Source: a virus. From it: a stretch of DNA of 64,000 nucleotides. Position numbers and translations under genes: made by a program. The notes under the pieces were generated by a model that saw only the letters and a list, made by a program, of their open reading frames with translations, made no database searches and was not told the DNA's origin. Every line of letters starts with the position of its first letter. The stretch's first letter is position 1. Shown here piece by piece: positions 1 through 60,676 of this stretch. The DNA lies in IMG/VR virus record IMGVR_UViG_3300045988_179014, positions 96,001-160,000 of that record. One strand, written 5' to 3'.

Positions 1-100
1 TACACCCGCAGAATACTAGTTTCTGTCAATTACTATATTTGATTGTAATGTAAAAACAGTTATGACTATATGCAATAAATTATAGGCAATTTGTAATGAG

Positions 101-173
101 TGGCACCAAAGGGAATCGAACCCTTGACCTTTCGCTTTTCAGGCGAACGCTCTGCCAACTGAGCTACAGTGCC
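101..173 (-). tRNA. tRNA-Phe, anticodon GAA, CCA encoded
   Basis: The reverse complement folds as a cloverleaf: acceptor ggcactg/cagtgcc, D-arm tagctcagttgg, anticodon loop cuGAAaa, T-arm GGTTCGATTCC, 3' CCA. Confidence 0.85.
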
Positions 174-206
174 AAAACTTAGTGATTATACTTTCACATT
201 ATGTTG

Positions 207-279
207 TGCGTTGCCTGGGACTCGAACCCAGAACCCACTGATTAAGAGTCAGTTGCTCTACCAATTGAGCTAGCAACGC
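207..279 (-). tRNA. tRNA-Lys, anticodon CUU, no encoded CCA
   Basis: Acceptor gcgttgc/gcaacgc, anticodon stem actga/tcagt with loop cuCUUaa, T-arm GGTTCGAGTCC. Confidence 0.8.
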
Positions 280-300
280 GTGTTTTATAATAATTTGAGA

Positions 301-609
301 TTACTCTTTGTCCCATCCTTCATGTTCTGGGTGTTTCTCCCAAAATGACTTCTTGTGAGAATGTGAGTGAAAAGGTTGAAGCAATTTGTTAATCCAGGGA
401 ACCTGCTCACACAGCTCATGAGCACATTCATGGCACAACACAGCTTCGTAATCCGTTTCCCCTAACACACCAGAATGCCCTAAGTTGTCAACAAACATAC
501 CATATCCACCGTAAAAGCCTATCCATAAAGCATTGTTGAATTGATAGTTAGTATTTTCATTGGGGAATTGTGGAGCCAATTCTGTTTCACAAGCTGTGCA
601 TTGGGCCAT
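301..609 (-). CDS. small Cys-rich protein (CTAC ... CHEC pairs), possible zinc-binding
   Basis: ORF 301..672 trimmed to the internal ATG at 607-609, which has a GGAGAG RBS 8 nt upstream. The annotated upstream part overlaps the tRNA at 646-718. Confidence 0.4.
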   Translation of the reverse strand: MAQCTACETELAPQFPNENTNYQFNNALWIGFYGGYGMFVDNLGHSGVLGETDYEAVLCHECAHELCEQVPWINKLLQPFHSHSHKKSFWEKHPEHEGWDKE

Positions 610-645
610 CGTTTTCTCTCCCCGGTCTAATTCGTATTTCTCCAG

Positions 646-718
646 TGCCCTTGGTGGGACTCGAACCCACACTAAACAGATTTTAAGTCTGCTGCCTCTA
701 CCATTGGGCTACAAGGGC
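646..718 (-). tRNA. tRNA with anticodon UAA and a short type-I variable arm; identity ambiguous (Leu-like by anticodon)
   Basis: Acceptor gcccttg/caagggc, anticodon stem gcaga/tctgt with loop cuUAAaa, 5-nt variable region, T-arm GTGGGTTCGAGTCCCAC. Confidence 0.6.
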
Positions 719-726
719 ATAATTGG

Positions 727-800
727 TACGGCAGGGGGGATTTGAACCCACCTATTTCCACTTTATAAGAGTGGCGCTCATACCGATTAGCATCTGCCGT
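727..800 (-). tRNA. tRNA-Ile-like, anticodon UAU (reads AUA)
   Basis: Acceptor acggcag/ctgccgt, anticodon stem ccact/agtgg with loop cuUAUaa, T-loop TTCAAAT. Confidence 0.7.
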
Positions 801-888
801 ATGTAGTTTTCACATGTTGTTAAGTTGTGAATCCATTATAACTGATTCATCCAATATTTGCAACAATACTTCTCTTTGTTTTTTGCTA

Positions 889-964
889 GCACCCTCGGTG
901 GGACTCGAACCCACATCAATCCAATTATGCGCTGCCCGCTTAGAAGGCGGTGCCAGTACGAGGG
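889..964 (-). tRNA. tRNA-Arg-like, anticodon loop cuUCUaa; fold atypical
   Basis: Acceptor gccctcg/cgagggt and T-arm GTGGGTTCGAGTCCCAC are clear. The Arg-UCU anticodon arm follows the acceptor after only about 7 nt. A 20-nt D-loop-like segment (cagcgcataattggattgat) lies between the anticodon arm and the T-arm. Confidence 0.5.
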
Positions 965-987
965 CATGTTTTCATATGTTGGCGACT
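964..987. repeat. 24-nt element catgttttcatatgttggcgacttg, inverted copy at 1627-1650
   Basis: Both copies encode MFSYVGDL in opposite orientation and both abut a tRNA gene end. Confidence 0.5.
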
Positions 988-1138
988 TGTCGGGTCTCTC
1001 ACCCGAAGCTCTGGAGTACAAGTCCAGTGTGTTCTTCCCAGAATAGATGACACAAACCACTTTTTCTGGTAGTTCTAGTCCTTGAGGAAGAATTTTGTGC
1101 TTCTTCCTCATTCTGCTAGACCTTACACCATCGCGTCG

Positions 1139-1212
1139 TCGGGAAGACAGGATTTGAACCTGCGACTTCTGGTACCCAAAACCAGCGCTCTACCAAACTG
1201 AGCTACATCCCG
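1139..1212 (-). tRNA. tRNA-Pro, anticodon UGG
   Basis: D-arm tagctcagtttggtagagc, anticodon stem ctggt/accag with loop uuUGGgu, T-arm GCAGGTTCAAATCCTGT. Confidence 0.8.
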
Positions 1213-1255
1213 GTATTTAAGAATATTTTATTGTAAATTATCAGACTAAATTCAG

Positions 1256-1328
1256 CACGACAGGAGGGATTCGAACCCCCATCTAACACTTTTGGAGAGT
1301 GTCGCTCTACCAATTGAGCTACTGTCGT
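1256..1328 (-). tRNA. tRNA-Trp, anticodon CCA
   Basis: Acceptor acgacag/ctgtcgt, anticodon stem acact/agtgt with loop cuCCAaa, T-arm GGGGGTTCGAATCCCTCC. Confidence 0.85.
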
Positions 1329-1370
1329 ATGGATAAATGGCATCCTAATGTTAAAGTGCACACGAAGATA

Positions 1371-1649
1371 CTAGGTACTCTTTAACATCCATTTTTCATC
1401 CAGAATAGATGCTGCATTCTGGATATCTGTAATGGATAACACACCTTCAACATATGAGAAACTACTATTGTTATCACATATGCAAAAATCATAAATTGTT
1501 CCATCTTCAGCTAAGCCATAACAAAGATGAAACATGTCATCTATCTCAAAAGTAATGGATGCAATACGTCCATTACGATATGCGTCATGAAATTCAATGG
1601 ATGTTGGAGTTTTTCCTCGGCTTATCAAATCACCAACATATGAAAACAT
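1371..1649 (-). CDS. hypothetical 92-aa protein embedded in the tRNA array
   Basis: ORF 1371..1715 trimmed to the internal Met (MFSYVGDL...). The longer ORF start overlaps tRNA-Ala. Confidence 0.4.
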   Translation of the reverse strand: MFSYVGDLISRGKTPTSIEFHDAYRNGRIASITFEIDDMFHLCYGLAEDGTIYDFCICDNNSSFSYVEGVLSITDIQNAASILDEKWMLKST

Positions 1650-1671
1650 GACATCACATCCTTCAATCACT

Positions 1672-1746
1672 TGGTGGAAGCTAGGGGATTCGAACCCCTG
1701 ACCCTCTGCTTGCAAAACAGATGCTCTACCACTGAGCTAAGCCCCC
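1672..1746 (-). tRNA. tRNA-Ala, anticodon UGC, CCA encoded
   Basis: gggggcttagctcagtggtagagc, anticodon loop uuUGCaa, T-arm AGGGGTTCGAATCCCCT, 3' CCA. Confidence 0.85.
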
Positions 1747-1780
1747 AATAATAAATATGATTGAAAATTATATACATGCG

Positions 1781-1853
1781 TTGGGACATTGGGATTTGAA
1801 CCCAAGACCTCATCTGTATCAGAGATGCGCTCTAACCACTGAGCTATGCCCCA
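1781..1853 (-). tRNA. tRNA-Ile, anticodon GAU
   Basis: tggggcatagctcagtggttagagc, anticodon stem catct/agatg with loop cuGAUac, T-arm TTGGGTTCAAATCCCAA. Confidence 0.85.
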
Positions 1854-1882
1854 TTAATGTCTCTCATCAAGAGAGACAATTG

Positions 1883-1953
1883 CTGCCCCACCTGGATTCG
1901 AACCAAGATTAACTGAGTCAGAGTCAGTTGTGCTGCCATTACACTATAGGGCA
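1883..1953 (-). tRNA. tRNA-Gln, anticodon CUG
   Basis: Acceptor tgcccta/tggggca, anticodon stem actga/tcagt with loop cuCUGac, T-loop TTCGAAT. Confidence 0.8.
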
Positions 1954-1982
1954 AGGAGAGTATTATTGATTACTTTGTATTA

Positions 1983-2045
1983 GGCCCAGTGGTGCTGTTG
2001 TTGTGGGCTGGTATTTTTTTGAGGTTACCACTGGGCCAACAACAT
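1983..2045. other. structured element (ggcccagtgg ... ccactgggcc with nested gttgttgt/acaacaac) between tRNA-Gln and tRNA-Val
   Basis: 10-bp perfect inverted repeat enclosing a second complementary pair and a T7 run; no ORF. Confidence 0.35.
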
Positions 2046-2099
2046 GGTTGGTATAACATAGGTTTTTTCTTATGAAATCACTATACCATAACTACCATG

Positions 2100-2176
2100 T
2101 GGTGGACACAGAGATAATCGAAATCCCGACCTCCTGGGTGTAAACCAGGCGCTCTAACCAACTGAGCTATGCGTCC
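2100..2176 (-). tRNA. tRNA-Val, anticodon UAC, CCA encoded
   Basis: ggacgcatagctcagttggttagagc, anticodon stem cctgg/ccagg with loop uuUACac, T-arm GGGATTTCGATTATCTC, 3' ACCA. Confidence 0.85.
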
Positions 2177-2200
2177 ATTGTGAAACTAAGCAACATTGTG

Positions 2201-2273
2201 TGCTCTGAACGGGATTTGAACCCGTGTTGCTGCCTTGAGAGAGCGGCGTCCTAGGCCACTAGACGACCAGAGC
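2201..2273 (-). tRNA. tRNA-Glu, anticodon CUC
   Basis: Resembles bacterial tRNA-Glu (tcgtctagtggcctaggac ... GGGTTCAAATCCCG). Anticodon loop cuCUCaa; one mismatch in the anticodon stem. Confidence 0.75.
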
Positions 2274-2294
2274 ATAAAATGTTGGTTTTTATTT

Positions 2295-2368
2295 TGGAAC
2301 GGGTAAGGATTCGAACCTTACATATACCGGTAAAAGGCCGGCCGATTTGCCATTAATCTACCATTCCA
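2295..2368 (-). tRNA. tRNA, probable Lys (UUU); noncanonical anticodon loop ccUUUua
   Basis: Acceptor ggaatgg/ccgttcc, anticodon stem gccgg/ccggt, T-arm TAAGGTTCGAATCCTTA. Loop position 33 is C; assignment is by eye. Confidence 0.55.
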
Positions 2369-2547
2369 TGGGCAATTTCTTACCCATTTTCTCATCCCCA
2401 TCCAAGACTCTAACTTGGATGCCCTTCCGGTGCATTATCTTTATGCTAATGGGGCAACCATAGGTTCATTCCATATTGTAGGACAAACTATTCGAATTCA
2501 TCTATCCTGACAAAAATGAATTGTTCCCGTAGGTTGGATTATATCCG

Positions 2548-2620
2548 CTCCTCCACCTGGACTCGAACCAGGAACCGTTCGGTTAACAGCCGAATGCTCT
2601 GCCAATTGAGCTACAGAGGA
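2548..2620 (-). tRNA. tRNA-Asn, anticodon GUU (copy 1)
   Basis: tcctctgtagctcaattggcagagc, anticodon stem ttcgg/ccgaa with loop cuGUUaa, T-arm CCTGGTTCGAGTCCAGG. Confidence 0.85.
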
Positions 2621-2661
2621 ATATAGTATTACATTACAATAATACTTCAACATTTAGTTGG

Positions 2662-2736
2662 TACGCCCTGTGGGACTCGAACCCACGACCTACGGATTAA
2701 AAGTCCGCAGCTCTAAACCAACTGAGCTAAGGGCGC
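2662..2736 (-). tRNA. tRNA-Lys, anticodon UUU
   Basis: gcgcccttagctcagttggtttagagc, anticodon stem gcgga/tccgt with loop cuUUUaa, T-arm GTGGGTTCGAGTCCCAC. Confidence 0.85.
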
Positions 2737-2808
2737 ATGATAACTTCCCAATTTTTCCTTTGGATACTCGAAAACGCTCCATAATGGAAAAATTATCTCT
2801 GGGATGCG

Positions 2809-2891
2809 TGGATAGGGAGGGATTCGAACCCCCAGCGTTTCTTATGTCACGGTTTTACAGACCGCTTACTTCACCATTTGTATACCTATCC
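2809..2891 (-). tRNA. tRNA-Tyr, anticodon GUA, long variable arm
   Basis: Acceptor ggatagg/cctatcc, anticodon stem gcggt/accgt with loop cuGUAaa, about 15-nt variable arm, T-arm GGGGGTTCGAATCCCTC. Confidence 0.8.
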
Positions 2892-2926
2892 AGGTAATGT
2901 TTGTTTATATTCAATTGTTTTCTCAG

Positions 2927-3013
2927 CGGAGACGACAGGATTCGAACCTGCGGAGGGTGTAACCCCTCGACAGTTTAGCAAACTGTTGCTTTAGGCCTCT
3001 CAGCCACATCTCC
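2927..3013 (-). tRNA. tRNA-Ser, anticodon GCU, long variable arm
   Basis: ggagatgtggctgagaggc, anticodon stem acagt/actgt with loop uuGCUaa, 19-nt variable arm cgaggggttacaccctccg, T-arm CAGGTTCGAATCCTG. Confidence 0.8.
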
Positions 3014-3046
3014 AAGTATAACATATGCATGCTATTGATGCAAAAG

Positions 3047-3117
3047 AGGTGCCTATGGGATTCGAACCCATGTACACGGTTTTGCAGACCGCTGCCTCGC
3101 CACTCAGCCAAGGCACC
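3047..3117 (-). tRNA. tRNA-Cys, anticodon GCA
   Basis: Acceptor ggtgcct/aggcacc, anticodon stem gcggt/accgt with loop cuGCAaa, T-arm ATGGGTTCGAATCCCAT. Confidence 0.85.
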
Positions 3118-3118
3118 G

Positions 3119-3194
3119 CACTCCGGGTGAGAGTCGAACTCACATGTGTCCATTAACCTTTCTACTGGTTCGTAGCCAGAGGGTATACCGGAGT
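3119..3194 (-). tRNA. tRNA-Arg-like, anticodon loop cuACGaa; fold atypical
   Basis: Acceptor actccgg/ccggagt and T-arm GTGAGTTCGACTCTCAC are clear. The Arg-ACG anticodon loop matches the bacterial CTACGAA loop. As in 889-964, the anticodon arm follows the acceptor after about 8 nt, and a 21-nt D-loop-like segment precedes the T-arm. The gene abuts tRNA-Cys. Confidence 0.5.
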
Positions 3195-3260
3195 AATACA
3201 ATCCAAATATTAGGATGATTCATAGATTCTACATTTGTTGGTAACAGTAGAATCTATTTT

Positions 3261-3336
3261 GGGGTGACTGACCGGATTCGAACCGGCGAAATCCTGAGTC
3301 ACAGTCAGGCGTGTTAACCTCTCCACCACAGTCACC
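3261..3336 (-). tRNA. tRNA-His, anticodon GUG
   Basis: Acceptor ggtgact/agtcacc, anticodon stem cctga/tcagg with loop cuGUGac, T-arm GCCGGTTCGAATCCGGT, discriminator C. Confidence 0.85.
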
Positions 3337-3342
3337 ATTCTG

Positions 3343-3415
<73 letters not shown>

Positions 3416-8464: not shown

Positions 8465-8466
8465 AT

Positions 8467-15591: not shown

Positions 15592-16707
15592 TCAGAGACG
15601 TCCGATTTTGAAGCCTGATTTTAGGAACCAGTTGAGGTCAGTGATAACTACACCACGTCTTGGATTAGCAGCATGAACCACTTTGCCATTGCCAACATAA
15701 ATTCCGATGTGCACACTGGTCCATAAAATGTCCCCAGGTTGAATCTCGTCTTTACTGACAGGAGTGGATGCCAAACCTTGAGCATGGGCGATACGTGGAA
15801 TGTTTTTACCATTGTGTGTATGATAAGCCCAATACACCAGTCCAGAACAGTCAAATGCATTAGGGCCAGAAGCACCCCAAACATATGGTTTCCCAACTTG
15901 GTCAATAATCATTTGAATAGTGGCATTGTCCACATTTGATGCTTTCAATGAACGCTTCTCATCATCTGTATTACGACCCCACTTATCACCTGAAGATGAA
16001 TTAGTGTTTGATGAATGAGCAGCAGTACGACCAGGGGTGTTGGCCACTTCATTAACAGTAGGCTCATTTGATGTCACAGCAGGTTCGGTTGTTGTGGTCT
16101 CTTTTGGACGCTCTTTGGTGCCAACCAGTACAACCTTGGGTATTGGCGCAGTTAAAACAGTCAACTTTTCTTCACTGGCGGTTTCAGTTCCCGCTTTAGC
16201 ACGACTTTGCGTTGAAATCACTGTTTTAAGGGCTTCACCTGCTGCTCCCTCATTTTCTACTTTGGTTTCACCCACATACAAATCATCACTGTTTTGGGTA
16301 ATTTCTGGTGCAGGTAATGTCACAGTAGATGATGTTCCAGCTATCTCATGTTTGTAGAGCACTAGATTTTCGTTGTTTTCAAGTGTTCGAGATGCAACGA
16401 GAGGATGGTCGCCTTCAATACGGTACTCATAGCTTTTGAGTCCTCGTGCTGACAATAATTCATCAATGGTGGCTTTGGCGTCAGTTACATCAATCACTTG
16501 TGTGTTTTCGTCAGAATTGACAACAATACGTGCTTTGAATGAGGAATCAGTACTCCCGGTCCCTTCAGCATTCAAAACAGCAGTATTGTCAATTGGGGAT
16601 GGAGGTACAGCCATAGCCACGGTAGGACTCAACGAAATCATGGCTGTAATAAGTCCTGTTGTTAGTTTTGTTGTTGTTCTTTTTTTCATCATAAGCTTTC
16701 GATTCAC
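15592..16707 (-). CDS. secreted peptidoglycan hydrolase: signal peptide + G5 domain + NlpC/P60 endopeptidase
   Basis: N-terminal signal peptide; G5-like middle region; C-terminal NlpC/P60 with catalytic CSGLVYWAY ... H ... H. Confidence 0.75.
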   Translation of the reverse strand: MNRKLMMKKRTTTKLTTGLITAMISLSPTVAMAVPPSPIDNTAVLNAEGTGSTDSSFKARIVVNSDENTQVIDVTDAKATIDELLSARGLKSYEYRIEGDHPLVASRTLENNENLVLYKHEIAGTSSTVTLPAPEITQNSDDLYVGETKVENEGAAGEALKTVISTQSRAKAGTETASEEKLTVLTAPIPKVVLVGTKERPKETTTTEPAVTSNEPTVNEVANTPGRTAAHSSNTNSSSGDKWGRNTDDEKRSLKASNVDNATIQMIIDQVGKPYVWGASGPNAFDCSGLVYWAYHTHNGKNIPRIAHAQGLASTPVSKDEIQPGDILWTSVHIGIYVGNGKVVHAANPRRGVVITDLNWFLKSGFKIGRL

Positions 16708-16929: not shown

Positions 16930-18036
16930 TCAAGATTGGGGTTTTGAAACAATAATAACAATGTTTTCTTCACTCTTGCCAGTTTGTCCCACACCAGGAA
17001 CCACATGTGTTACTTGAGGGGAAGTAACTGTTGAACTTACCACTTCCACAGTCTTGATATGACGGAATCCTGCAACCGCTAAATCGGTTTGTGCTTGTTC
17101 CGCAGTTTTGCCAATCACATCAGGAACAGTAATTTCCTTGGACTCGAATGCTTTGGAAACAACAACCTGCACATCGCTTCCACTTTCCACCTCACCCGCT
17201 TTAGGAGTCTGTCCAATGACAATACCTGAAGGTTTTTCTGACTCTTCCTCGCTGAAAATAACGTTCAACCCAAGCTGTTCTGCTTCAGCAGTGACAAGTT
17301 CCTTGCTCTTACCTTCCCAGTCAGGCAGTGTAACCTTACCGTTGGAAACATTCAAAGTGACGGATGTTCCATTAGCTACTTCAGTACCCGGTTCGATGCT
17401 TGCGCTGACGACATTTCCGGCTGGAAGCCCTTTACCGTCCACTTCATTCACAGCCTCAACAGAAACATTCATCTCATACAATTTTGCTTTTGCTTCTTCC
17501 AACGGTACATTCACTAAATTCGGAAACTCTGATTTGGCAGGACCATTGGAATATTTCATGGTCACTGTTTCTCCAATTTTTGTTTTTGTACTTGGTTCTA
17601 TATTCTGCTCAACCAATGTTCCACGTGGTTTTTCATCATTAACCACCCATGTTACCTGACATTCCAGTTTGGCCTCTTTGAAAGGAGCACAAGCATCATC
17701 GTTGGAAGCAACTTTACTGATTGCTTGTGGGACATGCGTATAATTAGCATTATCATAAGCAAGATAGATGAAATAACCACCAATAAGCAACAGAAAAGCA
17801 ACAATAGTGCTAACAACAATGACCCATTTACGTTTCTTGGATACGGCAGCTTGAGAGTTGGTGGTTGATTCTTCAGAATTATTGTCCTGATTCACTGAAC
17901 AATCTTCTTTAGTTTTATTCGAATCATCATCAGTATCAAAAACTGATGTTTCAGAATCATCAGCTATTGTTTCCGAATTCTTCTCAACAACTGTATCCTT
18001 ATTGTCTTCAGTTGTGTCATTAGTGTTATCATTCAT
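16930..18036 (-). CDS. membrane protein with three or four extracellular PASTA domains and no kinase domain
   Basis: Short acidic N-terminus; TM segment WVIVVSTIVAFLLLIGGYFIYLAY; repeated PASTA-like modules (..VPDVIGKTAEQAQTDLAVAGF.., ..LPDWEGKSKELVTAEAEQLGL..). Confidence 0.65.
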   Translation of the reverse strand: MNDNTNDTTEDNKDTVVEKNSETIADDSETSVFDTDDDSNKTKEDCSVNQDNNSEESTTNSQAAVSKKRKWVIVVSTIVAFLLLIGGYFIYLAYDNANYTHVPQAISKVASNDDACAPFKEAKLECQVTWVVNDEKPRGTLVEQNIEPSTKTKIGETVTMKYSNGPAKSEFPNLVNVPLEEAKAKLYEMNVSVEAVNEVDGKGLPAGNVVSASIEPGTEVANGTSVTLNVSNGKVTLPDWEGKSKELVTAEAEQLGLNVIFSEEESEKPSGIVIGQTPKAGEVESGSDVQVVVSKAFESKEITVPDVIGKTAEQAQTDLAVAGFRHIKTVEVVSSTVTSPQVTHVVPGVGQTGKSEENIVIIVSKPQS

Positions 18037-19673: not shown

Positions 19674-20630
19674 TCACTTCCTTACCTGTTTGGCAATCTG
19701 CACAAGCAGAAGTTCCATTGTAACAGAATCATCCGCCTGAGACCCACCCTTCAAATCAGTTTCAGCTTGTGCTATTAATTCTGTTAACTTTTGACAAATG
19801 CTTAATCCTAATTGTCGTGACATGTTCTGTGCCAATTTGAGTGCATAACTGTTGGAAACAGATAGGACAGCAGACAATTGTGCTCTATCAGTGATGCCGT
19901 GAAAGTGCTCCAAAGCAGCTATTCGCCACATCAATTGTATCTTATTGCGTAAAACAGATAACACCACCAAAGGATGACTGTGTAAAATGATTCTGCGATA
20001 AACACTTATTGTTTCAGGTACATCGCCTTGCATCAAAGGTTTCTCGATTTCCCAAGGTGGAATGGACCCTGGAGGTTGCGGCAGACGAATCATCAAATCT
20101 GCTACCGTAATCATGGATTGCTGTTTAGGAGTCAATGTTTCCAGTGACCGTAACAAAGAAAGCAAACTGTCATAATCTTCTGCAACATAATCTTCCAAGA
20201 AGCGTTTTTCACTACGTCCAAGAGATAGATTTGACAGCAATTTAGTGGTTACACTTGATTTGTCTTTGGATGATTCTTTGGCCAGTATGACACGGCCACC
20301 CAAATGATTGACGATTTGTTCCAATTTCTTTGTTGAGTTACGATTGGCCCCTGAAACCAGAACCAACCCATACCGTAATTTATGATTCAATTCATTCTTT
20401 GATGATGATTCCAAATCTTTGACCAATTTTTTGATTGTACTGATGTCATCCAATTCCATAACAGCTGTAGGCGGGTTTCCGAAAATGGTTTCTTGTCCCA
20501 CTTCGTCCAATGAATTCACTCGCTGAACATCAGTATCAGATTGCCATTGTTTCAAAATGCTCGCACGCTGAAAATCTCGGAAAGCAGACGATTTGTCCAA
20601 GATTAACGCCAATTTCATTCCGCACCTCAA
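19674..20630 (-). CDS. hypothetical; possible DNA polymerase III delta (HolA)-like clamp-loader subunit
   Basis: Length and C-terminal ..GGSQADDSVTMELLLVQIAK.. resemble HolA domain III. Weak. Confidence 0.35.
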   Translation of the reverse strand: MRCGMKLALILDKSSAFRDFQRASILKQWQSDTDVQRVNSLDEVGQETIFGNPPTAVMELDDISTIKKLVKDLESSSKNELNHKLRYGLVLVSGANRNSTKKLEQIVNHLGGRVILAKESSKDKSSVTTKLLSNLSLGRSEKRFLEDYVAEDYDSLLSLLRSLETLTPKQQSMITVADLMIRLPQPPGSIPPWEIEKPLMQGDVPETISVYRRIILHSHPLVVLSVLRNKIQLMWRIAALEHFHGITDRAQLSAVLSVSNSYALKLAQNMSRQLGLSICQKLTELIAQAETDLKGGSQADDSVTMELLLVQIAKQVRK

Positions 20631-21184
20631 AATCGAAAAACGATGGTACCATGGTCAACAACATCATACTTGGGAATAAAAATTTTATCCATGTTTCCGT
20701 CACAGAAAATACGACGCGAATCCAAACTGTGACTTGCATTGTCACCCATGACGAACAATTCCTCCCCAGTCAATGTGTGCTCATATCCTGTTTGTCCTTT
20801 AGCGCATTCGTAATTGTCTTGCTCCAGTTCATATACTGTTTCCCCATTTACCATGAATGCTTTCCCATCAAATGCGAGTGTGTCTCCAGGTATTGCTGTG
20901 ATGCGTTTTATCAAATTGGTGTCACGCTCCACATATGAATCCCACGAATTTGGTTTCTTGAATACAACAATTTGTCCACGGGAAACATAATCCGATTGCT
21001 TCAATACAATACTGTCCCCATGATGCAAAGTTGGTTCCATTGACCGTCCAGAGACGGCAAAAACAGAAATCCTAGCTATCATCAACACAACAAAAAACAA
21101 AACCGCAAGTATGGTTACTGCAACAACAAGACCTATACCAATTTTTATGATTCGTTTACCCAAATCTCTACTTGCCAAGTCCAT
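20627..21184 (-). CDS. lepB: signal peptidase I (S26 family)
   Basis: TM anchor; catalytic Ser box SGRSMEPTL; later Lys-box region. Confidence 0.75.
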   Translation of the reverse strand: MDLASRDLGKRIIKIGIGLVVAVTILAVLFFVVLMIARISVFAVSGRSMEPTLHHGDSIVLKQSDYVSRGQIVVFKKPNSWDSYVERDTNLIKRITAIPGDTLAFDGKAFMVNGETVYELEQDNYECAKGQTGYEHTLTGEELFVMGDNASHSLDSRRIFCDGNMDKIFIPKYDVVDHGTIVFRF

Positions 21185-34180: not shown

Positions 34181-35386
34181 TCAATTCATTTGACTCAGAG
34201 CAACCATAATGAATACATTGCTCACATTGTTACCATTTTCCGTCACTGGCTCAAAAATGAAAGCAGTGGAGTCAGTTCCCCATTTGAGACGAACATCTGT
34301 AGTTGCTACTGGATGGAAAGCTGAATTAATTACTGTACGGGAGAATTTGGCTGTATAAGGTTCATCAGATTCGTAGTTCAAACCCTCAAGCTCAACAGTC
34401 AATGTGTTTGAACCGTTGGCATCACTGACACTCAACCCGTCCTTATCCACTGTCAGGTAAACTGCATATTCTGCTGGAGACAGGTCCGAAATGACTTTAA
34501 TGGCATTTTTGAGAGCTGTTGTGTTTACTGTAATGTCATATTCCACACCTGATTCCACTGCTTTCCTCATTTTGTCAGCATGAGTAAAAGCTGTGGTATT
34601 TGTCAAAGCAAACAATGCCAAACGCCCGTCAGGGAATGAATAGCCAAAACGTAAAGCCCCACGGTGTGTTTTCTCCCCCACCAAAGTGATAGAAGTGTTC
34701 AGCCCTTTAGTAGGAGGAACAACAGTAGCACTGGCACTTGGTAACAAGATGTGTTCAGTTGTGAAAGATTCCACCAATGTATCATCATCGTCAACATTCG
34801 CTGGACTGAAATCAAGAGAAATCTGGGCCAAAGCGTAACGGTCAGTAGCAAACAACGTTAGTTTGTTGTTTGCAGAATCAAGTCCTAAATCAACTGACCC
34901 CAAGAATGATGTGGCGCCAGAATTTTTAGCATCACATAGTTTCGCGATACGCCCCAATGAATCAAAAAATTCTGTATCATCAACTTCACCCAACTCAACC
35001 AATTCAGGAACTTTGGAAACACGAAAATCCAGTAATGGAACAGTAAATTTTCCCAAATTGGTTTTCATAATTAAAACAGTGTCAGATGTTTTAGTAACAG
35101 TTACATCACCATCAGATTTGACCAGCGCATTGGCGAGACTTTTGAGATAAGTCCCTTCCAACGCCAAATCCACTTGTGTCACTCCATCAGTAGATAAATC
35201 AATCGTTGAAACATTGAATTCTGCTTTCATATAAGAATTACTATTCTCATGAGCAAAATACCCGCTACCTTGTTCATTCACTGATAACACAACATGTGAA
35301 CGACTGTTTTTCGTATCGTAATTCTTGGTAGCCCATAAAATGGCTGTTACCAGGTTTTTGACATTGGCCACAAACTTCATCAACAT
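34181..35386 (-). CDS. dnaN: DNA polymerase III beta sliding clamp (DnaN)-like
   Basis: Clamp-length ORF with the characteristic ..FATDRYALAQ.. motif (compare ATDGHRLA). Confidence 0.55.
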   Translation of the reverse strand: MLMKFVANVKNLVTAILWATKNYDTKNSRSHVVLSVNEQGSGYFAHENSNSYMKAEFNVSTIDLSTDGVTQVDLALEGTYLKSLANALVKSDGDVTVTKTSDTVLIMKTNLGKFTVPLLDFRVSKVPELVELGEVDDTEFFDSLGRIAKLCDAKNSGATSFLGSVDLGLDSANNKLTLFATDRYALAQISLDFSPANVDDDDTLVESFTTEHILLPSASATVVPPTKGLNTSITLVGEKTHRGALRFGYSFPDGRLALFALTNTTAFTHADKMRKAVESGVEYDITVNTTALKNAIKVISDLSPAEYAVYLTVDKDGLSVSDANGSNTLTVELEGLNYESDEPYTAKFSRTVINSAFHPVATTDVRLKWGTDSTAFIFEPVTENGNNVSNVFIMVALSQMN

Positions 35387-35941: not shown

Positions 35942-38314
35942 TCAGGAGGATGTATACAGAACAATCTCCTTTTTGGTTCCCACTGGTAATTGCAATCCAG
36001 GGGTCAAAGACTGTTCCACAACCACCCCGGATGGATACCCTTCTGGTGCAGGTTTTGTTTCTTTACTGACATGCACCACAATACCCAATGATTCCATGGT
36101 ACTGACAGCTTCAGCCGGTTGCATTCCAACAACAGACGGGATAGTGAAAAAATCACGTTTCTCAACTGGTACAGGTTGCAATGAGCGGTCAGCATTATCG
36201 TAATCCAATGGCTGATTTGACTCACCTGAACCTGCCACAATTGCTCTTAAAACATCTGATGCGGCTTGTGATGCTGGGTTGATACTTTGACGCTGCCCAC
36301 GATACACCATTCCGTCTACACCTCTGGTTACTGTATCCATGTCGTAAATACCCATGTAGATGGAGTGTGTTTTGGATACTTGAGCCCATGCATAATTGTA
36401 ATTCTGGTTGGTTCCAGATTTACCCACAGCATCATATCCCTGAATTTGCGCTTTGGTTCCGAAAGCCCCCTCAACTTCACCAGGATATGTGTTCGCACGC
36501 ATTGCTTGAAGCACTGTTGATGCTGTGTGTGGACTCATGACTCGACGACAGGAGTCTTTGGCCGGGTCATAAGTATCCGGAATCGCTGGTGAGGTTCCAT
36601 CAGCGTATTCATAATTGGCAACAGGTGTGGCAGGGCAGAAAACACCCCCATTCGCAAATGTTGCATAAGCAGCTGCCATATTGATGGGACTGTTTTCAAC
36701 AGAACCCAAAACAAATGACAGGCTACGTTCAGTAACACCTTTCGGAACATTGAGATTCAAGTTTCTGCTCATGTCAAAAATCTTGTTCATCCCAATTTTG
36801 GTGGCTAGTGTCAAAAACCAAGTGTTGGAAGACCATGCAGTAGCTTGTTTGTAGTTGATGTTGCCAGCTTGATATGTACACCCATTCGAGTTGTGGAAAC
36901 CGCCTCGGGGATGGTCATAGCCAGAAGGGGAATATGGACATTGTGATGAGAACTGCATATCTGCTGGGTCCATACCTGATTCCAATGCTGCGGCTAATGC
37001 AACCATTTTGAAGGTGGAGCCAGTTGCCGCTGGATTAGCTGGCACATTGAGTGTTGTTTCTCCTTCACCAACACCATAATTACGATTCACCCCGATGCCT
37101 GATACTCCACCATTACCAGGATTTACAACTGCGACAGGGGCAACCACTCGATTGCCGTTACCAAAATCTTTTTCCAGCTGTTCATCAATTAACTGCATTT
37201 GTTGAGGATTCATATATGTTTTGATGTGCAAACCGCCTTTGGCCAGAATCGCATCTCGTTCATCTTGAGTTTCCCCCAGTTTTGGACTCTTGGACAAATA
37301 TTGGAAAACATAGTTGCAGTAGAATGGGTATTTGGATGACACACAATTCCCAGCAGAACGTTTTTTACGTACAAGAGTCAACTCCTCAGCTAATGCATTT
37401 GATGCTTCTTCTTGTGTGATGTAACCTTCTGCGACCATACGATTGAGGACAGTTTTTTGACGAGTTTTCCACTGGTTTTTACGGTCATCATTGTCCAAGT
37501 TGTATGCAGCCGGGTTTTGCACTGACCCCACCAGCACAGCAGATTCCGCCAAAGTCAAATCCTTGGCAGATTTCCCAAAAAAGTAATTGGAAGCTGATTC
37601 AATGGAGTAAATATTAGGTCCACCAAAAGCAACTGTATTGAAATAAGCCAACAGAATCTCATCTTTACTGTGAGTTTTTTCATACTCAATAGCAAGTTTC
37701 AGTTCTTTCAGTTTTCGTGTATATGTGCTTTCAACCGCCTCTTTTTTCTTCTCTTTACCCGCCATATTATAGAATTGCAGATTTTTCACCAATTGCTGAG
37801 TGATACCAGACCCACCCCCGGAACTCAACAATGCTCTAAAAGTTCCTTTGGGGTCGAATCCTTTGTGTTCATAGAACCTTTTGTCTTCAGTTGCCAAAAG
37901 ACCTTTCTTGGCATAATCACTGATTTCATCCAATGATTTCAGAGCAATACGGTCCTCTGACCAGACTTCAGCGAAAACGTCCCCATTTGTGTCATATAGT
38001 GTGTTTCGTTGGGCGATTTGAATGTCTCCCAGCTCGGATGGCATTTGTTTCCATACACTTACCATAGGGTCAGCAACCATAGCAGCACTACTCAGCATTG
38101 CAAGGGGCAACATGGACACCAAAAGACCTGCAACAACAGATATCCCAATAATACCGAAAATGGCTCCAACAGTTTTCTTAGCACTTCTTTTTTCAACAAC
38201 ATGCTCTTCCACAGAAGCTACGCCATCGAAAAGTTCATCAATACTTACTGTGGTAGCGTTTTTGTCATTCCACTGACCAAACATATAATTCCTCCAAGAA
38301 ACTGTGACCGCCAT
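35942..38314 (-). CDS. class A penicillin-binding protein (glycosyltransferase + transpeptidase) with a C-terminal PASTA domain
   Basis: TM anchor; GT51 motifs (RFYEHKGFD, QQLVKN); transpeptidase STFK; C-terminal PASTA. Confidence 0.85.
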   Translation of the reverse strand: MAVTVSWRNYMFGQWNDKNATTVSIDELFDGVASVEEHVVEKRSAKKTVGAIFGIIGISVVAGLLVSMLPLAMLSSAAMVADPMVSVWKQMPSELGDIQIAQRNTLYDTNGDVFAEVWSEDRIALKSLDEISDYAKKGLLATEDKRFYEHKGFDPKGTFRALLSSGGGSGITQQLVKNLQFYNMAGKEKKKEAVESTYTRKLKELKLAIEYEKTHSKDEILLAYFNTVAFGGPNIYSIESASNYFFGKSAKDLTLAESAVLVGSVQNPAAYNLDNDDRKNQWKTRQKTVLNRMVAEGYITQEEASNALAEELTLVRKKRSAGNCVSSKYPFYCNYVFQYLSKSPKLGETQDERDAILAKGGLHIKTYMNPQQMQLIDEQLEKDFGNGNRVVAPVAVVNPGNGGVSGIGVNRNYGVGEGETTLNVPANPAATGSTFKMVALAAALESGMDPADMQFSSQCPYSPSGYDHPRGGFHNSNGCTYQAGNINYKQATAWSSNTWFLTLATKIGMNKIFDMSRNLNLNVPKGVTERSLSFVLGSVENSPINMAAAYATFANGGVFCPATPVANYEYADGTSPAIPDTYDPAKDSCRRVMSPHTASTVLQAMRANTYPGEVEGAFGTKAQIQGYDAVGKSGTNQNYNYAWAQVSKTHSIYMGIYDMDTVTRGVDGMVYRGQRQSINPASQAASDVLRAIVAGSGESNQPLDYDNADRSLQPVPVEKRDFFTIPSVVGMQPAEAVSTMESLGIVVHVSKETKPAPEGYPSGVVVEQSLTPGLQLPVGTKKEIVLYTSS

Positions 38315-38357: not shown

Positions 38358-39119
38358 TCAGTCAGCAAAATGTTCATTTATCAATTCTTCCGACAACTTG
38401 GACGCTGATTGTTTGGATGCAGAAGTGGACTGACCTTGTAATTCAACAGATGTTTTTTCAATCAGTTCCATCAGTTTTGCATTACCTGAATCATTGAGAA
38501 CTGCACCAAACGATTCCGGCTTGTCATTACTGGTGAAAATGGCAGTGAGTGAATTGCTGTAAACATGGTCGATGAATCTCTCCAACAATGGAAGTTCTCT
38601 ACGTTCATCATAAAAATCTCGTGCTCCCACATTATCCAAGATGAACACTTTGGTTTTATCGGACAGCAAGTTCTCAAATTTTGCACGTCCTTCAAAACCT
38701 GTATATGCCAAACTCAGCATAGCTTCTTCAGAAATGATTTTGACCTGTGAGAATGTAGTCCATCCAGCACCAATGAATTTCCGAACAATTGCATATGCCA
38801 AGTACTTCCCTAATTCAGTTGCACCATGAATGAAGAAACTCTGTTGACCATATGTGTTGATGAGTTCAAGAATTTCATGAGCGGCTGGATGGTTCATTCG
38901 TGACAATGACGCTTTCTGCCAGCGTTTTGGAAGATTGTTGTCCCATCGTTGAAGGTTGAGACGTCGCTCATGTATAATGCGTTCCCGTTCCACTTTGGCG
39001 TATCGTTCATCCATGGAATCCTGAAACTGTTTGAAAGCATCAAAATCTGTTTCGTTGTGTCGGGCATAAGTAAAACGCCCACTTGAGCTGGCAGTGTGCA
39101 AATCATCCATCTCAGTCAT
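38358..39119 (-). CDS. possible DnaC/IstB-like AAA+ helicase loader
   Basis: Weak Walker A FIHGATELGKY and Walker B VFILDNVG; sits downstream of dnaB. Confidence 0.4.
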   Translation of the reverse strand: MTEMDDLHTASSSGRFTYARHNETDFDAFKQFQDSMDERYAKVERERIIHERRLNLQRWDNNLPKRWQKASLSRMNHPAAHEILELINTYGQQSFFIHGATELGKYLAYAIVRKFIGAGWTTFSQVKIISEEAMLSLAYTGFEGRAKFENLLSDKTKVFILDNVGARDFYDERRELPLLERFIDHVYSNSLTAIFTSNDKPESFGAVLNDSGNAKLMELIEKTSVELQGQSTSASKQSASKLSEELINEHFAD

Positions 39120-39506: not shown

Positions 39507-40982
39507 TTATAAGTCCTGAATGCTTAAATCGTCGTCCAAATTATCTGGGTCAAACTCAGAAAAATCCATGTCATCAACTATTTCTTCCATTTCTTCTTCC
39601 GTCAAACGTTCATCAATCTCTTTTTCACGTTTGATTTCGCGAAAGATGGAACACTCCAGATTTGTGTGACATCGAATAATTTTGTTTGCTTCACCATCCC
39701 GGTTTTTCGCCAAAACAACCAATGTGTGTGGTGTAGTATCATCTTGCGGTAAATCACGGTGAAGAAGAACAACCACATCAGAGTCCATAGCAATAGAGCG
39801 GGACTCACGAATGTTGTCCAGAGTTGGAAGTTTTCCTTCTTCATCGTCATCTTTATTATTCAACTGCACAAGAATCATAATCGGTACACCAAGTGTTTTT
39901 GCGGTTAACTTCATACTACGGGACAAATCAGCCACCGCTTCTTGACGAGTACCAAACCTTCCTACTGGTGTCACCAATTGTAGATAATCCAAAATCACCA
40001 TGTCGAGACCATCAGGACTTTGCGCACGCTTGAAGGCTTTAGAACGAATGGAATCCACAGTGGCTTTGGGGTCTGTGTCAATCATTATTTTCATGTGGCA
40101 AAGCTCATCGTAAGCTTCCTCCACCAACACTCGGTCCTCAGGGGCTAGTTTGCCACGTTTTAGCCTGCTTTGTGACACCCCAGACATGCATGCCACAATA
40201 CGGTCAATAATAGAATCATGAGACATCTCAAGTGAAAAAAACAGAACCGATTTTCCTGCTCGTGCTGCCGCAACCAAAGCCATAACCGCAAAAACAGATT
40301 TACCAATACCCGTTCTGGCACCTACAGTAATCAATTGTTGTGGCGACCAGCCCAAAGTGTATCTGTTCAATGTAGGTAATAGGGTTGGAATCCCCTGTAA
40401 ACCATCTGATTTTTCATCATTTTCTTGAGTTATTTTTTCACGATGATTCAATAATTCAAAATAGTCGTCTTTGTACGCAGCAACATTGATTATAGTCGAG
40501 TCATCAGATAAATGGAAAAGCACATCATTGAATTCAGATGTGAGATTGGATATTGCTTCTACAGCTGAAATGCCAGAATTATCCTGGAAAGTTGGTTGAG
40601 CACTTTTAATTAAAGCACTGGCACGGTTTTTTGCCGCAGATTCCCTCACCACTTGTGCGTACAATTCGGGGGTTCCTTGCAGTAGATATCTTTCCCCGTC
40701 ACGGTGTAATTGATATAGTCCTGCTACACCACCCAATTGTTCCAAAGCGCCACGTCGCTCTAAAAGATGAGCCACAGAAATAACCGAGATTGACTCATCT
40801 TGACGGGCCAGCTCCATAATACAGCTGAAAGCTGTTTCCCACATCGGTTCTGAAAAATCGTCTGGACGCACCAACTCTAAAACACGATTGGTTGAGGTGC
40901 CATCATAAATTAATGACGCTACTAATCGCCGCTGAACTTGCTGATATAGTTCACACCCCTGTTCCGCCAAAACAAACCCCAA
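39507..40982 (-). CDS. dnaB: replicative DNA helicase DnaB
   Basis: N-terminal DnaB domain; RecA-like core GARTGIGKSVFAVM. Confidence 0.85.
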   Translation of the reverse strand: MGFVLAEQGCELYQQVQRRLVASLIYDGTSTNRVLELVRPDDFSEPMWETAFSCIMELARQDESISVISVAHLLERRGALEQLGGVAGLYQLHRDGERYLLQGTPELYAQVVRESAAKNRASALIKSAQPTFQDNSGISAVEAISNLTSEFNDVLFHLSDDSTIINVAAYKDDYFELLNHREKITQENDEKSDGLQGIPTLLPTLNRYTLGWSPQQLITVGARTGIGKSVFAVMALVAAARAGKSVLFFSLEMSHDSIIDRIVACMSGVSQSRLKRGKLAPEDRVLVEEAYDELCHMKIMIDTDPKATVDSIRSKAFKRAQSPDGLDMVILDYLQLVTPVGRFGTRQEAVADLSRSMKLTAKTLGVPIMILVQLNNKDDDEEGKLPTLDNIRESRSIAMDSDVVVLLHRDLPQDDTTPHTLVVLAKNRDGEANKIIRCHTNLECSIFREIKREKEIDERLTEEEMEEIVDDMDFSEFDPDNLDDDLSIQDL

Positions 40983-59041: not shown

Positions 59042-60676
59042 TCACTGCTGCGGTTGTGGCCAAGAGTTGGGGATTGTGACTCCTTCAGGAATACTAGGTG
59101 GCAACGGTTCTGCTGGTTTATCCATGTCCAAAATAGCTGGTCGTTCTGGAACACTGGTACATCCAGCAGGTTTGGGCGGGATGCTGACAGATGGACTGGG
59201 TGAAGGTGCAGGAATGGTGGGTTGAGGAGTCACCCCAACAGATGGCGATGGCTCAGGAACAGGTGGAATGACAGGGGTACGGTTCTGCTGGTCATAGAGT
59301 TCACCCCATTGTTCCTCCCATCGTTTCAACTCATCCTGTTTGGTTTTACATGTTTGCAGTTTTTCGTTGTATGTATTGGATGCAGCAGCTTTACGGTCAT
59401 CAAAAGAACGCCAGTCATTGTGCTGTTCAACATAGGAATACCATATTTTACGAATCTTGTTGCGTTCTGTGATTAACCAAGACCACTTGCTGTGCACTTC
59501 ATCCACTTGTTGTACATAATTGTTCCAGGCGTCAGCTTGTGGGGCTGTCAATGCCATTTTGAAAGACCATTGAAGTTTACTATCCACATACTCTTGAGCT
59601 GCTTTATCCAGTTCGTTTTGTTTTGATTCCAGCGATTGGTTCTTTTCAGTAATCAGTTTGTTCGTATCATACACAGGAGATTTCTGCCCACTCCATGACC
59701 ATCCACAACCAGGTCCAGCAATGTCCGCAACATGATAAAAAGCCTTGTCCGTGAAATCGGTCTGGTCTGCGATTTTTTGTGGTAATTCGGGTTTTGTAAC
59801 GGTTGCTGGTAGTTGCGGAAAACCTGATGGCAATGGAGCTTCTGGTTCAACTGCTTTCGGATTTCCAATTTCCAACAAATTGATTGATGTCGGATTGGGG
59901 AGATTGTCAATTTTCACTGTTGTATGCAATTCTGTGTACTGCACTAAACCTGTGTATGCATCTTTGTCATAGAAAAAACTACGTTTGGCGTCATCTGGTG
60001 ATACTGTGAGGGAAACACATTGGGAAGCTTGTAAACTTGTTGTCATTTCTGTTGAGTAGAATTGCAACAAAATGTCCCGTTGTTCTGAATTGCTTGCTGT
60101 GACTCCAATAATGGCATCTCCCATGGTAATCATGAATGTATTACCTTGAACAGCCACAATCCCATGCTCTTTTTGTGTTACGGATACTTTGCCACATTTT
60201 TCCAATGCAGCTACATAACTGTGGAATGCTTGGTAGGCTTGCCCAGCACCGTAAACCTGTATGCGAGTTTCTACACCGCTTCCTGTTGCTGTAGTCGTGG
60301 CCAGAAGACTGTTGGGGACATCACCAATGCTTCCACACAGTGAAGGATTGATGACATGTTGGGGTTTGGCTCCTTCACTCACTTTCCATTGGTCCACTCC
60401 AGATGGTTGTTTGGCAATCAATTGAGAAGCCCATGTGACAGCTGGCGATTTGGTGCTGGCGATGTCTTGGTAGGGACTGATTTTTTGCGGCTCTTCAAAC
60501 AAATGATTATAACTTGCATACCCTGTATGGACCATTCCAGCAAATGCAATCAAAGTTGCTACCAAAAACATGAGATATAAAACAGGTTGATTGAAAATCC
60601 AAGCAATTAAAGGAAACTTGATAATACTACTTTCCTTGTAATCTCGGTAACGTTTGCGAACCATGTTTCTCCTCAT
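59042..60676 (-). CDS. membrane-anchored protein with Pro-rich C-terminal region
   Basis: N-terminal TM helix; PxP-rich tail. Confidence 0.45.
   Translation of the reverse strand: MRRNMVRKRYRDYKESSIIKFPLIAWIFNQPVLYLMFLVATLIAFAGMVHTGYASYNHLFEEPQKISPYQDIASTKSPAVTWASQLIAKQPSGVDQWKVSEGAKPQHVINPSLCGSIGDVPNSLLATTTATGSGVETRIQVYGAGQAYQAFHSYVAALEKCGKVSVTQKEHGIVAVQGNTFMITMGDAIIGVTASNSEQRDILLQFYSTEMTTSLQASQCVSLTVSPDDAKRSFFYDKDAYTGLVQYTELHTTVKIDNLPNPTSINLLEIGNPKAVEPEAPLPSGFPQLPATVTKPELPQKIADQTDFTDKAFYHVADIAGPGCGWSWSGQKSPVYDTNKLITEKNQSLESKQNELDKAAQEYVDSKLQWSFKMALTAPQADAWNNYVQQVDEVHSKWSWLITERNKIRKIWYSYVEQHNDWRSFDDRKAAASNTYNEKLQTCKTKQDELKRWEEQWGELYDQQNRTPVIPPVPEPSPSVGVTPQPTIPAPSPSPSVSIPPKPAGCTSVPERPAILDMDKPAEPLPPSIPEGVTIPNSWPQPQQ

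Follow-up and report, generated by a model that had tools for sequence, protein, structure and literature searches.

How a complete cell-wall synthase comes to be encoded on DNA that is catalogued as viral is the question raised by a stretch of 64,000 nucleotides from the IMG/VR virus record IMGVR_UViG_3300045988_179014 (positions 96,001 to 160,000 of that record, in the following called the window). An uninterrupted open reading frame (ORF) of 790 codons, located on the minus strand at 35942..38314, encodes a class A penicillin-binding protein (PBP). By its sequence the gene is clearly that of an intact bifunctional class A PBP of a divergent subfamily. It is also a core gene of a lineage of large replicons, in which it is locked between the genes of a helicase loader and a sliding clamp. 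As to the nature of these replicons, we consider it rather probable that they form an undescribed family of giant plasmid-like extrachromosomal elements of a Gram-positive host and are not phages.

The residues of the PBP are given here in the numbering of the 790-aa frame. The sequence upstream of its first ATG, at 38314, holds no Shine-Dalgarno site comparable to the GGAGGA in front of the second ATG, at 38284 (Table 1). Since gene callers and homologues begin at this second start as well, the real product most likely comprises 780 aa, and an identical 780-aa protein is recorded on five contigs of 0.2-1 Mb. A full-length class A PBP with intact GT51 and transpeptidase motifs and a C-terminal PASTA domain had been read from the letters in the initial annotation, and this description was borne out by the Pfam domains and by a motif alignment, in which 27 family members share 50-74% identity with the window protein. 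The GT51 glycosyltransferase domain carries E143-D144 (EDxxF), G166-G167-G168-S169..T172-Q173-Q174, R200-K201-x-x-E204, K217..N226 and R285..V289, and the transpeptidase domain carries S433-x-x-K436, S495-S496-N497 and K632-[S/T]-G634-T635 (K632-S-G-T635 in the window). All catalytic residues of both active sites are invariant in this alignment. The same is true for all six cysteines, which are extracytoplasmic and suggest three (predicted) disulfides. Selection on the protein is evident from the comparison with a 94.7%-identical relative, where 60 synonymous changes stand against four non-synonymous ones (dN/dS 0.018).

The order of membrane anchor, GT51, transpeptidase and single PASTA domain is the architecture of Mycobacterium tuberculosis PonA2. 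This likeness concerns the domain order only. The best matches among solved structures are Staphylococcus aureus PBP2 and the Gram-negative PBP1a and PBP1b. The terms PonA2 and PASTA occur together in PMC3987819. An AlphaFold2 (AF2) model reached a mean predicted local distance difference test (pLDDT) score of 79, with a beta-alpha-beta secondary structure in the PASTA domain (pLDDT 79-91). Its best Foldseek match was S. aureus PBP2 (3dwk; E 5.9e-31, probability 1.0, target-normalised TM-score 0.66), followed by Escherichia coli PBP1b and Acinetobacter baumannii PBP1a, with M. tuberculosis PonA1 lower. A phmmer search of the PDB matched the GT51 domain to the glycosyltransferase domains of PBP1a and MtgA. 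Although the domains are present, the protein stays below every curated NCBIfam cutoff in 15 matches (PBP_1a_fam TIGR02074: 299.3 bits vs 508.75), which places it in a divergent subfamily.

From these motifs the PBP is predicted to be enzymatically active. One might instead suppose that it acts less as a general synthase than as a non-catalytic scaffold or decoy, for instance by titrating regulators of the host or the signals of PASTA kinases, or by conferring beta-lactam tolerance as a low-affinity PBP. In favour of such a role, a kinase-less membrane protein with three PASTA domains is encoded nearby and suggests interference with PASTA-based sensing, the NCBIfam scores point to a divergent subfamily, and a 2026 preprint (10.64898/2026.06.03.729914) reportedly deals, according to its title, with catalysis-independent roles of PonA2 in M. 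smegmatis. The active sites are, on the other hand, invariant among proteins only 50-74% identical and dN/dS is, when rounded, 0.02; an enzyme is therefore to be expected and the scaffold appears very unlikely.

Relatives of the PBP are abundant. A search of 5.8 billion proteins delivered at least 120 clusters with 50-99% identity, a length of about 780 aa and the same three domains, the PASTA domain being annotated in all 120 among the matches listed. The nearest outgroups in a search of 1.84 billion proteins were metagenomic proteins only. In five independent relatives (L003, L004, L099, L100 and L101; L numbers are our designations for the sequences compared) the gene order around the PBP is the same as in the window, down to a PBP identity of 51%. 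It begins with genes for a Bax-inhibitor-like protein, a T4-Rnl1-like ligase, an HNH endonuclease, a DUF2201/VWA protein, RecA and MoxR, continues with DnaB, a small ORF, the DnaC-like loader, the PBP, a further small ORF (missing in some relatives) and the sliding clamp, and ends with two ORFs, a ClpB-like ATPase, an ORF, RecG, an ORF and NrdE. The position between dnaN-like and dnaB-region genes, as proposed initially, is thus found again, with a clamp matching PHROG 947 on one side and the DnaC/IstB-like gene and DnaB on the other. The PBP is a core gene of this lineage; it is vertically inherited and no recent pick-up from a host.

The contigs on which the gene resides are large. Those of the window's own 90% cluster measure 337,400, 343,299, 344,889, 344,924 and 347,407 bp, those of relatives 436,870 and 436,884 bp, and further relatives reach 542,517, 670,635, 681,645, 697,643 and 727,572 bp. 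The 337,400-bp contig is ERZ27262748 k119_28504, on which the window corresponds to about 186-250 kb; the contigs of 727,572 and 697,643 bp are ERZ27247443 k141_1824502 and k141_1324127. Since the sizes recur in classes (337-347 kb for the window's type, 385-728 kb for relatives), they suggest complete replicons of about 0.34-0.73 Mb.

Replicons of this size could be small chromosomes, and a bacterial chromosome had been named as the alternative in the initial annotation. The sequence inspected for this purpose is a contiguous view of about 120 kb with about 90 ORFs, formed by the window together with a 94.7%-identical colinear relative and corresponding to contig positions of about 6.5-125 kb, in an element of about 337 kb. 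This view draws on a colinear IMG/VR contig (188,933 bp), one metagenome contig and two contigs of lineage members of about 700 kb. Rfam detected only tRNAs and no rRNA in the window, and the Pfam families in the 120 kb include no ribosomal-protein, RNA polymerase, aminoacyl-tRNA synthetase or core-metabolism operon. Peptide patterns and a profile revealed no member of the PBP family in 185,579 GTDB species genomes among the matches listed, where the best candidates reach 25-32% identity. By the criterion set in the initial annotation (rRNA and ribosomal-protein operons and core metabolic genes), and judged on these 120 kb and on GTDB, the replicon is not a bacterial chromosome. This also bears on the special case of an ultra-small bacterium, Patescibacteria- or Saccharibacteria-like with about 0.7 Mb, in which the PBP would be the housekeeping wall synthase. 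The contigs of 0.54-0.73 Mb do match the size of such genomes, the replisome, RecA, RecG, the ClpB-like ATPase, the signal peptidase, the PBP, the tRNAs and a tmRNA are of cellular type, and the long ORFs of the window, at a GC content of about 42%, all lie on the same strand, and the GC skew is steady. Against it, many genes for ribosomal proteins, RNA polymerase, aminoacyl-tRNA synthetases and translation factors would be expected in a genome of 0.34-0.7 Mb and none occurs in the 120 kb; besides the missing rRNA, the window's own type measures only about 340 kb, its DnaN is too divergent for Pfam, about 41 tRNAs stand in one array, and a family so common in metagenomes has no counterpart in GTDB among the matches listed. 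A small cellular genome is thus extremely unlikely. Saccharibacteria and other small-genome bacteria, which had come into consideration through the contig sizes and the PASTA and G5 domains, were rejected as candidates because the 120 kb hold no translation or transcription core genes and GTDB has no member of the family among the matches listed.

The designation as a phage was put to the same kind of comparison. Neither Pfam nor PHROGs found a capsid, portal, terminase, tail or baseplate family in the 120 kb. A megablast search with 15 kb and a tblastn search with the clamp gave no match in 50,697 phage records; the PBP itself found at best 28.6% identity there, mostly in unannotated metagenomic 'phage' contigs, and a known phage was rejected as candidate on these results. 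Instead, a conserved module just upstream of the window encodes an SMC/SbcC-like ATPase, a T2SSE (VirB11/PilB-type) ATPase, HU, a lineage-specific polytopic protein of 1339 aa and a TrbL/VirB6 protein. In the relative the latter scores 29.6 bits (Pfam cutoff 25.9, E 7e-7). It is found in L107 and L108 as well, the T2SSE ATPase being encoded next to it, and in L107 it is fused to a Peptidase_M23 domain. About 25 kb separate this upstream module, which is secretion- or conjugation-like, from the PBP block (L104 607-7648; L107 3870-17872; L108 4468-16999). An FtsK/SpoIIIE ATPase (2.2e-11) is encoded downstream.

A huge phage of a Gram-positive host, a jumbo phage or megaphage of 0.34-0.73 Mb, would nevertheless explain part of the gene content, and the PBP would then be an auxiliary gene that preserves or enlarges the wall of the infected cell over a long infection, or seals it again after entry. 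Related contigs are held as viral genomes in IMG/VR, and about 41 tRNAs with a tmRNA, homing endonucleases, inteins, a T4-type RNA ligase, ribonucleotide reductase (RNR), dCMP deaminase and a split DnaE are common in such phages. Further points in its favour are the clamp, which matches a phage profile only, the share of ORFs without a Pfam family (about 45%), and the few phage records that carry GT51-transpeptidase genes, e.g. Microcystis phage MaAM05. Huge phages have been described with genomes of up to 735 kb, many tRNAs, a tmRNA and genes for translation and replication (Al-Shayeb et al. 2020, PMC7162821), and differ from the present lineage by their virion genes, none of which was found in the 120 kb. 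The main text of that study does not mention penicillin, peptidoglycan or cell wall, and a 2025 preprint on a huge-phage collection does not mention penicillin or peptidoglycan. Moreover, secreted proteins with signal peptides dominate the region beside the replication block, and the 'phage-like' traits recur on a plasmid of a cultured Arthrobacter isolate and on the megaplasmid pMP7017. Together with the TrbL/VirB6, T2SSE and FtsK/SpoIIIE genes and the searches of phage records, these observations make a phage rather unlikely. The label 'phage' from the initial annotation has only the IMG/VR listing behind it and gene types that megaplasmids share, and it was not upheld for this replicon, whose nearest named PBP relatives lie on megaplasmids.

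The closest named PBP is encoded on plasmid NZ_CP099467.1 (375 kb) of Arthrobacter caoxuetaonis zg-Y453, with 34% identity over 98% of the length including the PASTA domain (319 bits). A second one was found on pACHL01 (427 kb) of Pseudarthrobacter chlorophenolicus A6 with 33-34% identity, aligned over 79% (254 bits), whereas the best chromosomal PBPs in GTDB reach at most 202 bits on the same scale among the matches listed. The Arthrobacter plasmid is circular, codes mostly for hypothetical proteins and has no annotated virion gene. It encodes ParA, FtsK/SpoIIIE, a coupling protein of a type IV secretion system (T4SS), DnaE, SSB, NrdEFI, SNF2, RtcB, RNA and DNA ligases, SecYEG, cell-wall hydrolases and an array of 33 tRNAs. 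SecY, SecE, SecG, ClpX, two sigma-70 factors, Lsr2 and type IV pilus genes were noted especially at 131.6-164.2 and 150.3-158.5 kb. The lineage shares with it a class Ib RNR, DnaE, SSB, SNF2, the MoxR-VWA pair, a PHA02142-type RNA ligase, a Bax-inhibitor/YccA protein, HNH endonucleases, cell-wall hydrolases, FtsK/SpoIIIE and a tRNA array. Homologues exist on the plasmid for eight of the 47 window proteins, among them the MoxR-VWA pair and a membrane-anchored protein of 544 aa without relatives in Pfam or PHROGs (tblastn against NF551_RS18365: 24.5% identity, E 1e-12). On the Arthrobacter plasmid the gene next to the PBP on its downstream side encodes the counterpart of the latter, and on pACHL01 a gene for 540 aa has this place. 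This arrangement on both Micrococcaceae megaplasmids makes the 544-aa protein a candidate partner or regulator of the PBP. In contrast to the lineage, the PBP of the Arthrobacter plasmid stands outside any block of DnaB, loader and clamp, and the 120 kb inspected for the lineage showed neither ParA nor type IV pili or SecYEG. The 375-kb 'plasmid' of A. caoxuetaonis itself has the appearance of a giant element not described so far; residing in a cultured host, it might serve as an experimental model.

Several hints lead to the host. The PonA2-type architecture, the conserved cysteines, the location of the nearest PBPs on Micrococcaceae plasmids and the type of NrdE point to Actinomycetota as the probable host phylum. 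Disulfides in exported proteins are a trait of Actinomycetota rather than of Firmicutes. NrdE is 70-73% identical to the type of Actinomycetota and Rhizobiales and less than 60% to that of Firmicutes, a comparison which separates types and names no host. Taken with the gene content, a fuller picture can be drawn, which we put forward only tentatively: a widespread, undescribed extrachromosomal family of 0.34-0.73 Mb with Gram-positive, probably actinobacterial hosts, mis-filed as viruses in IMG/VR and equipped with a nearly complete tRNA set, a tmRNA, a full replisome of bacterial type, a secretion apparatus and a replisome-embedded PonA2-like synthase.

A number of points weigh against a plasmid-like element of this kind. 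Two related contigs (189 and 310 kb), IMGVR_UViG_3300045988_187329 and IMGVR_UViG_3300031088_000782, are entered as viral in IMG/VR, and the window has genes of phage flavour, namely the T4 Rnl1-like and PHA02142-type ligases, the HNH and homing endonucleases and the clamp that matches a PHROG profile only. The search for virion genes covers about 120 of about 337 kb, so that a virion module could lie in the remaining 215 kb or so. The inspected 120 kb contain no relaxase, Rep, ParA/ParB or VirB4; the TrbL match, with 29.6 bits, is modest, and a BLAST comparison of the VirB6-like protein with 72,556 plasmids gave no relative. Only the eight of 47 window proteins are matched on the Arthrobacter plasmid, and the GC contents differ (42% vs 64.5%), which leaves common descent unsupported. 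The host hints are all indirect; a GC content of 42% is low for Actinomycetota, and Firmicutes are also possible as hosts. Finally, the activity of the PBP and its benefit to the element are derived from sequence and model.

Similar elements have been described. The Inocles, the closest analogue in the literature, are circular giant elements of a plasmid-like kind in oral Streptococcus with 245-395 kb and 24-32% GC, in which a bifunctional protein with transmembrane (TM), transglycosylase and transpeptidase parts is kept in all taxa (Kiguchi et al. 2025, PMC12340149). They also encode an S26 signal peptidase, Pol III alpha, DNA gyrase, a RecD-like helicase, many membrane and cell-wall proteins and tRNAs, and are depleted in filtrates (PMC12340149). 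The lineage studied here resembles them as a giant non-chromosomal replicon with a replichore-like gene orientation, and all the listed Inocle gene types occur in it as well, compared by description. It differs in size and composition (337-728 kb, about 42% GC) and by the PASTA domain of its PBP, none being reported for the Inocle protein; the inspected 120 kb also yielded neither sortase A nor InoC (PF13814), the marker of the Inocles. At this level of description the element seems to resemble an Inocle in function, and we do not assign it to that family. The second analogue, pMP7017, is a conjugative megaplasmid of Bifidobacterium breve with 190 kb, a transcribed array of 20 tRNAs and its own tmRNA (PMC10832533). 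As it is an actinobacterial plasmid, tRNA arrays are not specific for phages. It is much smaller than the present elements, its likeness is again one of description, and the paper mentions neither a penicillin-binding protein nor a transglycosylase.

The features located in the course of this work are compiled in Table 1.

Table 1. Positions of the PBP gene, its parts and further features; entries with an L number lie on other sequences of the lineage, all others in the window.
Feature	Position	Strand	Evidence and remarks
Class A PBP, coding sequence	35942..38284	-	Probable 780-aa product; the ORF reaching ATG 38314 gives 790 aa
Shine-Dalgarno sequence GGAGGA	38290..38295	-	5 nt 5' of ATG 38284; read from the sequence
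N-terminal signal-anchor TM helix, residues ~45-67	38114..38182	-	Hydropathy scan (from ~residue 47) and AF2 helix 45-67
GT51 glycosyltransferase domain, residues 113-293, predicted catalytic E143 and E204	37436..37978	-	Pfam PF00912 Transgly, E 3e-48
Acyl-serine transpeptidase domain, residues 395-657	36344..37132	-	Pfam PF00905, E 1.7e-23; pLDDT mostly >90
Single C-terminal PASTA domain, residues 724-789	35948..36145	-	Pfam PF03793, 33.8 bits vs cutoff 23.2
DnaC/IstB-like helicase loader, directly upstream of the PBP	38358..39119	-	Pfam IstB_IS21, weak; position kept across the lineage
DnaB replicative helicase	39507..40982	-	Pfam DnaB_C, 3.4e-57
Divergent sliding clamp, downstream of the PBP	34181..35386	-	PHROG 947 processivity factor, 1.6e-16; no Pfam match
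Type I signal peptidase S26	20627..21184	-	Pfam Peptidase_S26, 1.9e-28; SGRSMEPT serine box
Membrane-anchored three-PASTA protein without kinase domain	16930..18036	-	Pfam PASTA x3, 1.9e-36; TM at ~residue 68
Secreted G5 + NlpC/P60 peptidoglycan endopeptidase	15592..16707	-	Pfam NLPC_P60 2.6e-20, G5 2.5e-10; signal peptide, DCSG catalytic motif
544-aa membrane-anchored ORFan	59042..60676	-	TM anchor, 6 Cys, Pro-rich tail; no Pfam or PHROG match
First 19 tRNA genes of an array of ~17 kb	100..3415	-	ARAGORN and Rfam
Array segments in relatives	L087 15061-21329; L088 6752-9226; L089 10479-16557		tRNA array and tmRNA
TROVE/Ro60-like protein	L110 16474-18057; L087 19105-20688		L110: window's own genome, ~0.6-2.2 kb beyond position 1
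T4-Rnl1-like RNA ligase	47719-49302
PHA02142-type RNA ligase	45487-46512
Metallophosphoesterase	13089-14339
Split DnaE/DnaX locus	L102 11223-16934		IMG/VR contig ~96.8-102.5 kb

Wall-related genes other than the PBP are present in the window. A lepB-type S26 signal peptidase, a G5/NlpC-P60 hydrolase and a PASTA-only protein had been pointed out in its vicinity from the beginning, and all three were recovered by Pfam. TM-like segments occur in 16 of the 47 window ORFs, and many exported or membrane proteins are among the products. In the three-PASTA protein, an acidic N-terminus lies in the cytoplasm and a single TM segment leads to the PASTA domains on the outer side. This layout is similar to the sensor ectodomain of PknB/StkP minus the kinase, and the protein could compete with PASTA-kinase sensing of the host. 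Near the PBP block of two relatives we observed a DsbA-like protein (Thioredoxin_4, weak Pfam match; L003 49-900, L004 711-1574). This agrees with the PBP's six invariant cysteines and suggests that the element encodes oxidative folding of exported proteins. In L099, whose PBP is 52% identical, two sugar-nucleotide genes are inserted immediately upstream of the PBP (8144-9992), one for an NAD-dependent epimerase/dehydratase and one for a nucleotidyltransferase; they are another envelope-related function at this spot.

The part of the replicon devoted to DNA includes a DnaE that is split in two by a DnaX-like gene (366 aa), with the PHP and N-terminal part on 496 aa and the finger/HhH part on 918 aa. 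Further genes encode Pol III delta, a PIF1 helicase, RecG, SSB, GyrA and a class Ib RNR, and a dCMP-deaminase-like ORF was recognised by eye only. With DnaB, the loader and the clamp, the replisome is of bacterial type. Several endonucleases are encoded in the 120 kb, among them HNH and homing endonucleases in the window. Inteins are probable at three sites: in the SNF2 helicase of the window (8467-11439), whose SNF2 domain is spread over residues 78-612 with a weak Intein_splicing match, in DnaB, which has 759 aa in L003 and L004 vs 491 aa in the window (a surplus of about 270 aa), and in the T2SSE ATPase of L107 (3870-6251) with LAGLIDADG/Hom_end matches. The order of a DUF2201 metallopeptidase/VWA protein, RecA and a MoxR-type AAA ATPase (window 41067-45361) is kept across the lineage, and the MoxR and VWA homologues of the Arthrobacter plasmid lie about 1.8 kb apart. 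Proteins with five to six DUF4379 treble-clef zinc-finger repeats are encoded at 6896-8464 and 21891-23792 of the window and at 16573-18327 of the relative contig L089, where the repeats are joined, as judged by eye, to an endonuclease-like part. Homologues occur widely in gut Firmicutes and Bifidobacterium, and the Arthrobacter plasmid carries one. A protein search with DUF4379 returned generic zinc-ribbon proteins and no paralogues on long lineage contigs, and with the DUF4379 and homing-endonuclease genes as multi-copy probes only the same IMG/VR contig was found again.

The tRNA array comprises, in the 94.7%-identical relative, about 41 tRNAs for nearly all amino acids, including the rare tRNA-Ile(UAU). 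The same array of the relative contains a tmRNA with the tag ANAIQDDYTLAV. A TROVE/Ro60-like protein of 527 aa is encoded inside the array (weak Pfam TROVE match), with a C-terminal part that appears VWA-like by eye. Together with the two RNA ligases and the metallophosphoesterase it suggests a module for RNA repair or quality control.

What the PBP could do for its element may be outlined as follows. The protein would insert as a type II membrane protein with the catalytic domains outside; the GT51 domain would polymerise lipid II into glycan strands, the transpeptidase domain would cross-link the stem peptides, and the PASTA domain would probably bind uncross-linked peptidoglycan or lipid II. 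The element would thereby give its host an extra peptidoglycan synthase of its own. The S26 signal peptidase may process the many exported proteins of the element, and PBP, signal peptidase, secreted endopeptidase and PASTA-only protein would make up a wall-remodelling toolkit, by which the host wall is adjusted or reinforced during residence. Both this physiological role and the plasmid-like lifestyle are what we infer from the gene content. A remodelling at the septum, as it had been suggested initially, would be speculation. The position of the PBP inside the replisome block hints at a coupling of the element's own replication to the wall growth of the host. Scans for promoters and terminators around the PBP gave nothing over shuffled background and were thus uninformative, and a co-expression with the replication genes is offered as a hypothesis only.

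Compared with the Inocles and the Arthrobacter-type plasmids, the replicons described here would represent a distinct and larger family, in which the PBP bears a PASTA domain and has a fixed place in the replication module. In about 100 kb of one IMG/VR contig of the lineage we observed T4SS-like genes and no virion gene. IMG/VR may thus have mis-called giant plasmid-like elements as huge phages, possibly in a systematic manner, and in virome catalogues in general, contigs that combine tRNA arrays with homing endonucleases and RNA ligases and lack virion genes may be wrongly taken for huge phages. Should the elements be phages after all, phage biology would gain something new, a megaphage with a conserved bifunctional PBP. 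The finding raises the questions how such an element affects the wall thickness, cell size and beta-lactam susceptibility of its host, and why the PBP gene is placed between loader and clamp. If the elements are plasmid-like, the class of giant extrachromosomal elements, to which Inocles, Borgs and megaplasmids belong, would be extended to sizes rivalling small bacterial genomes, and a class A PBP encoded by the element itself would recur as a core feature among such elements of Gram-positive hosts, beyond one family.

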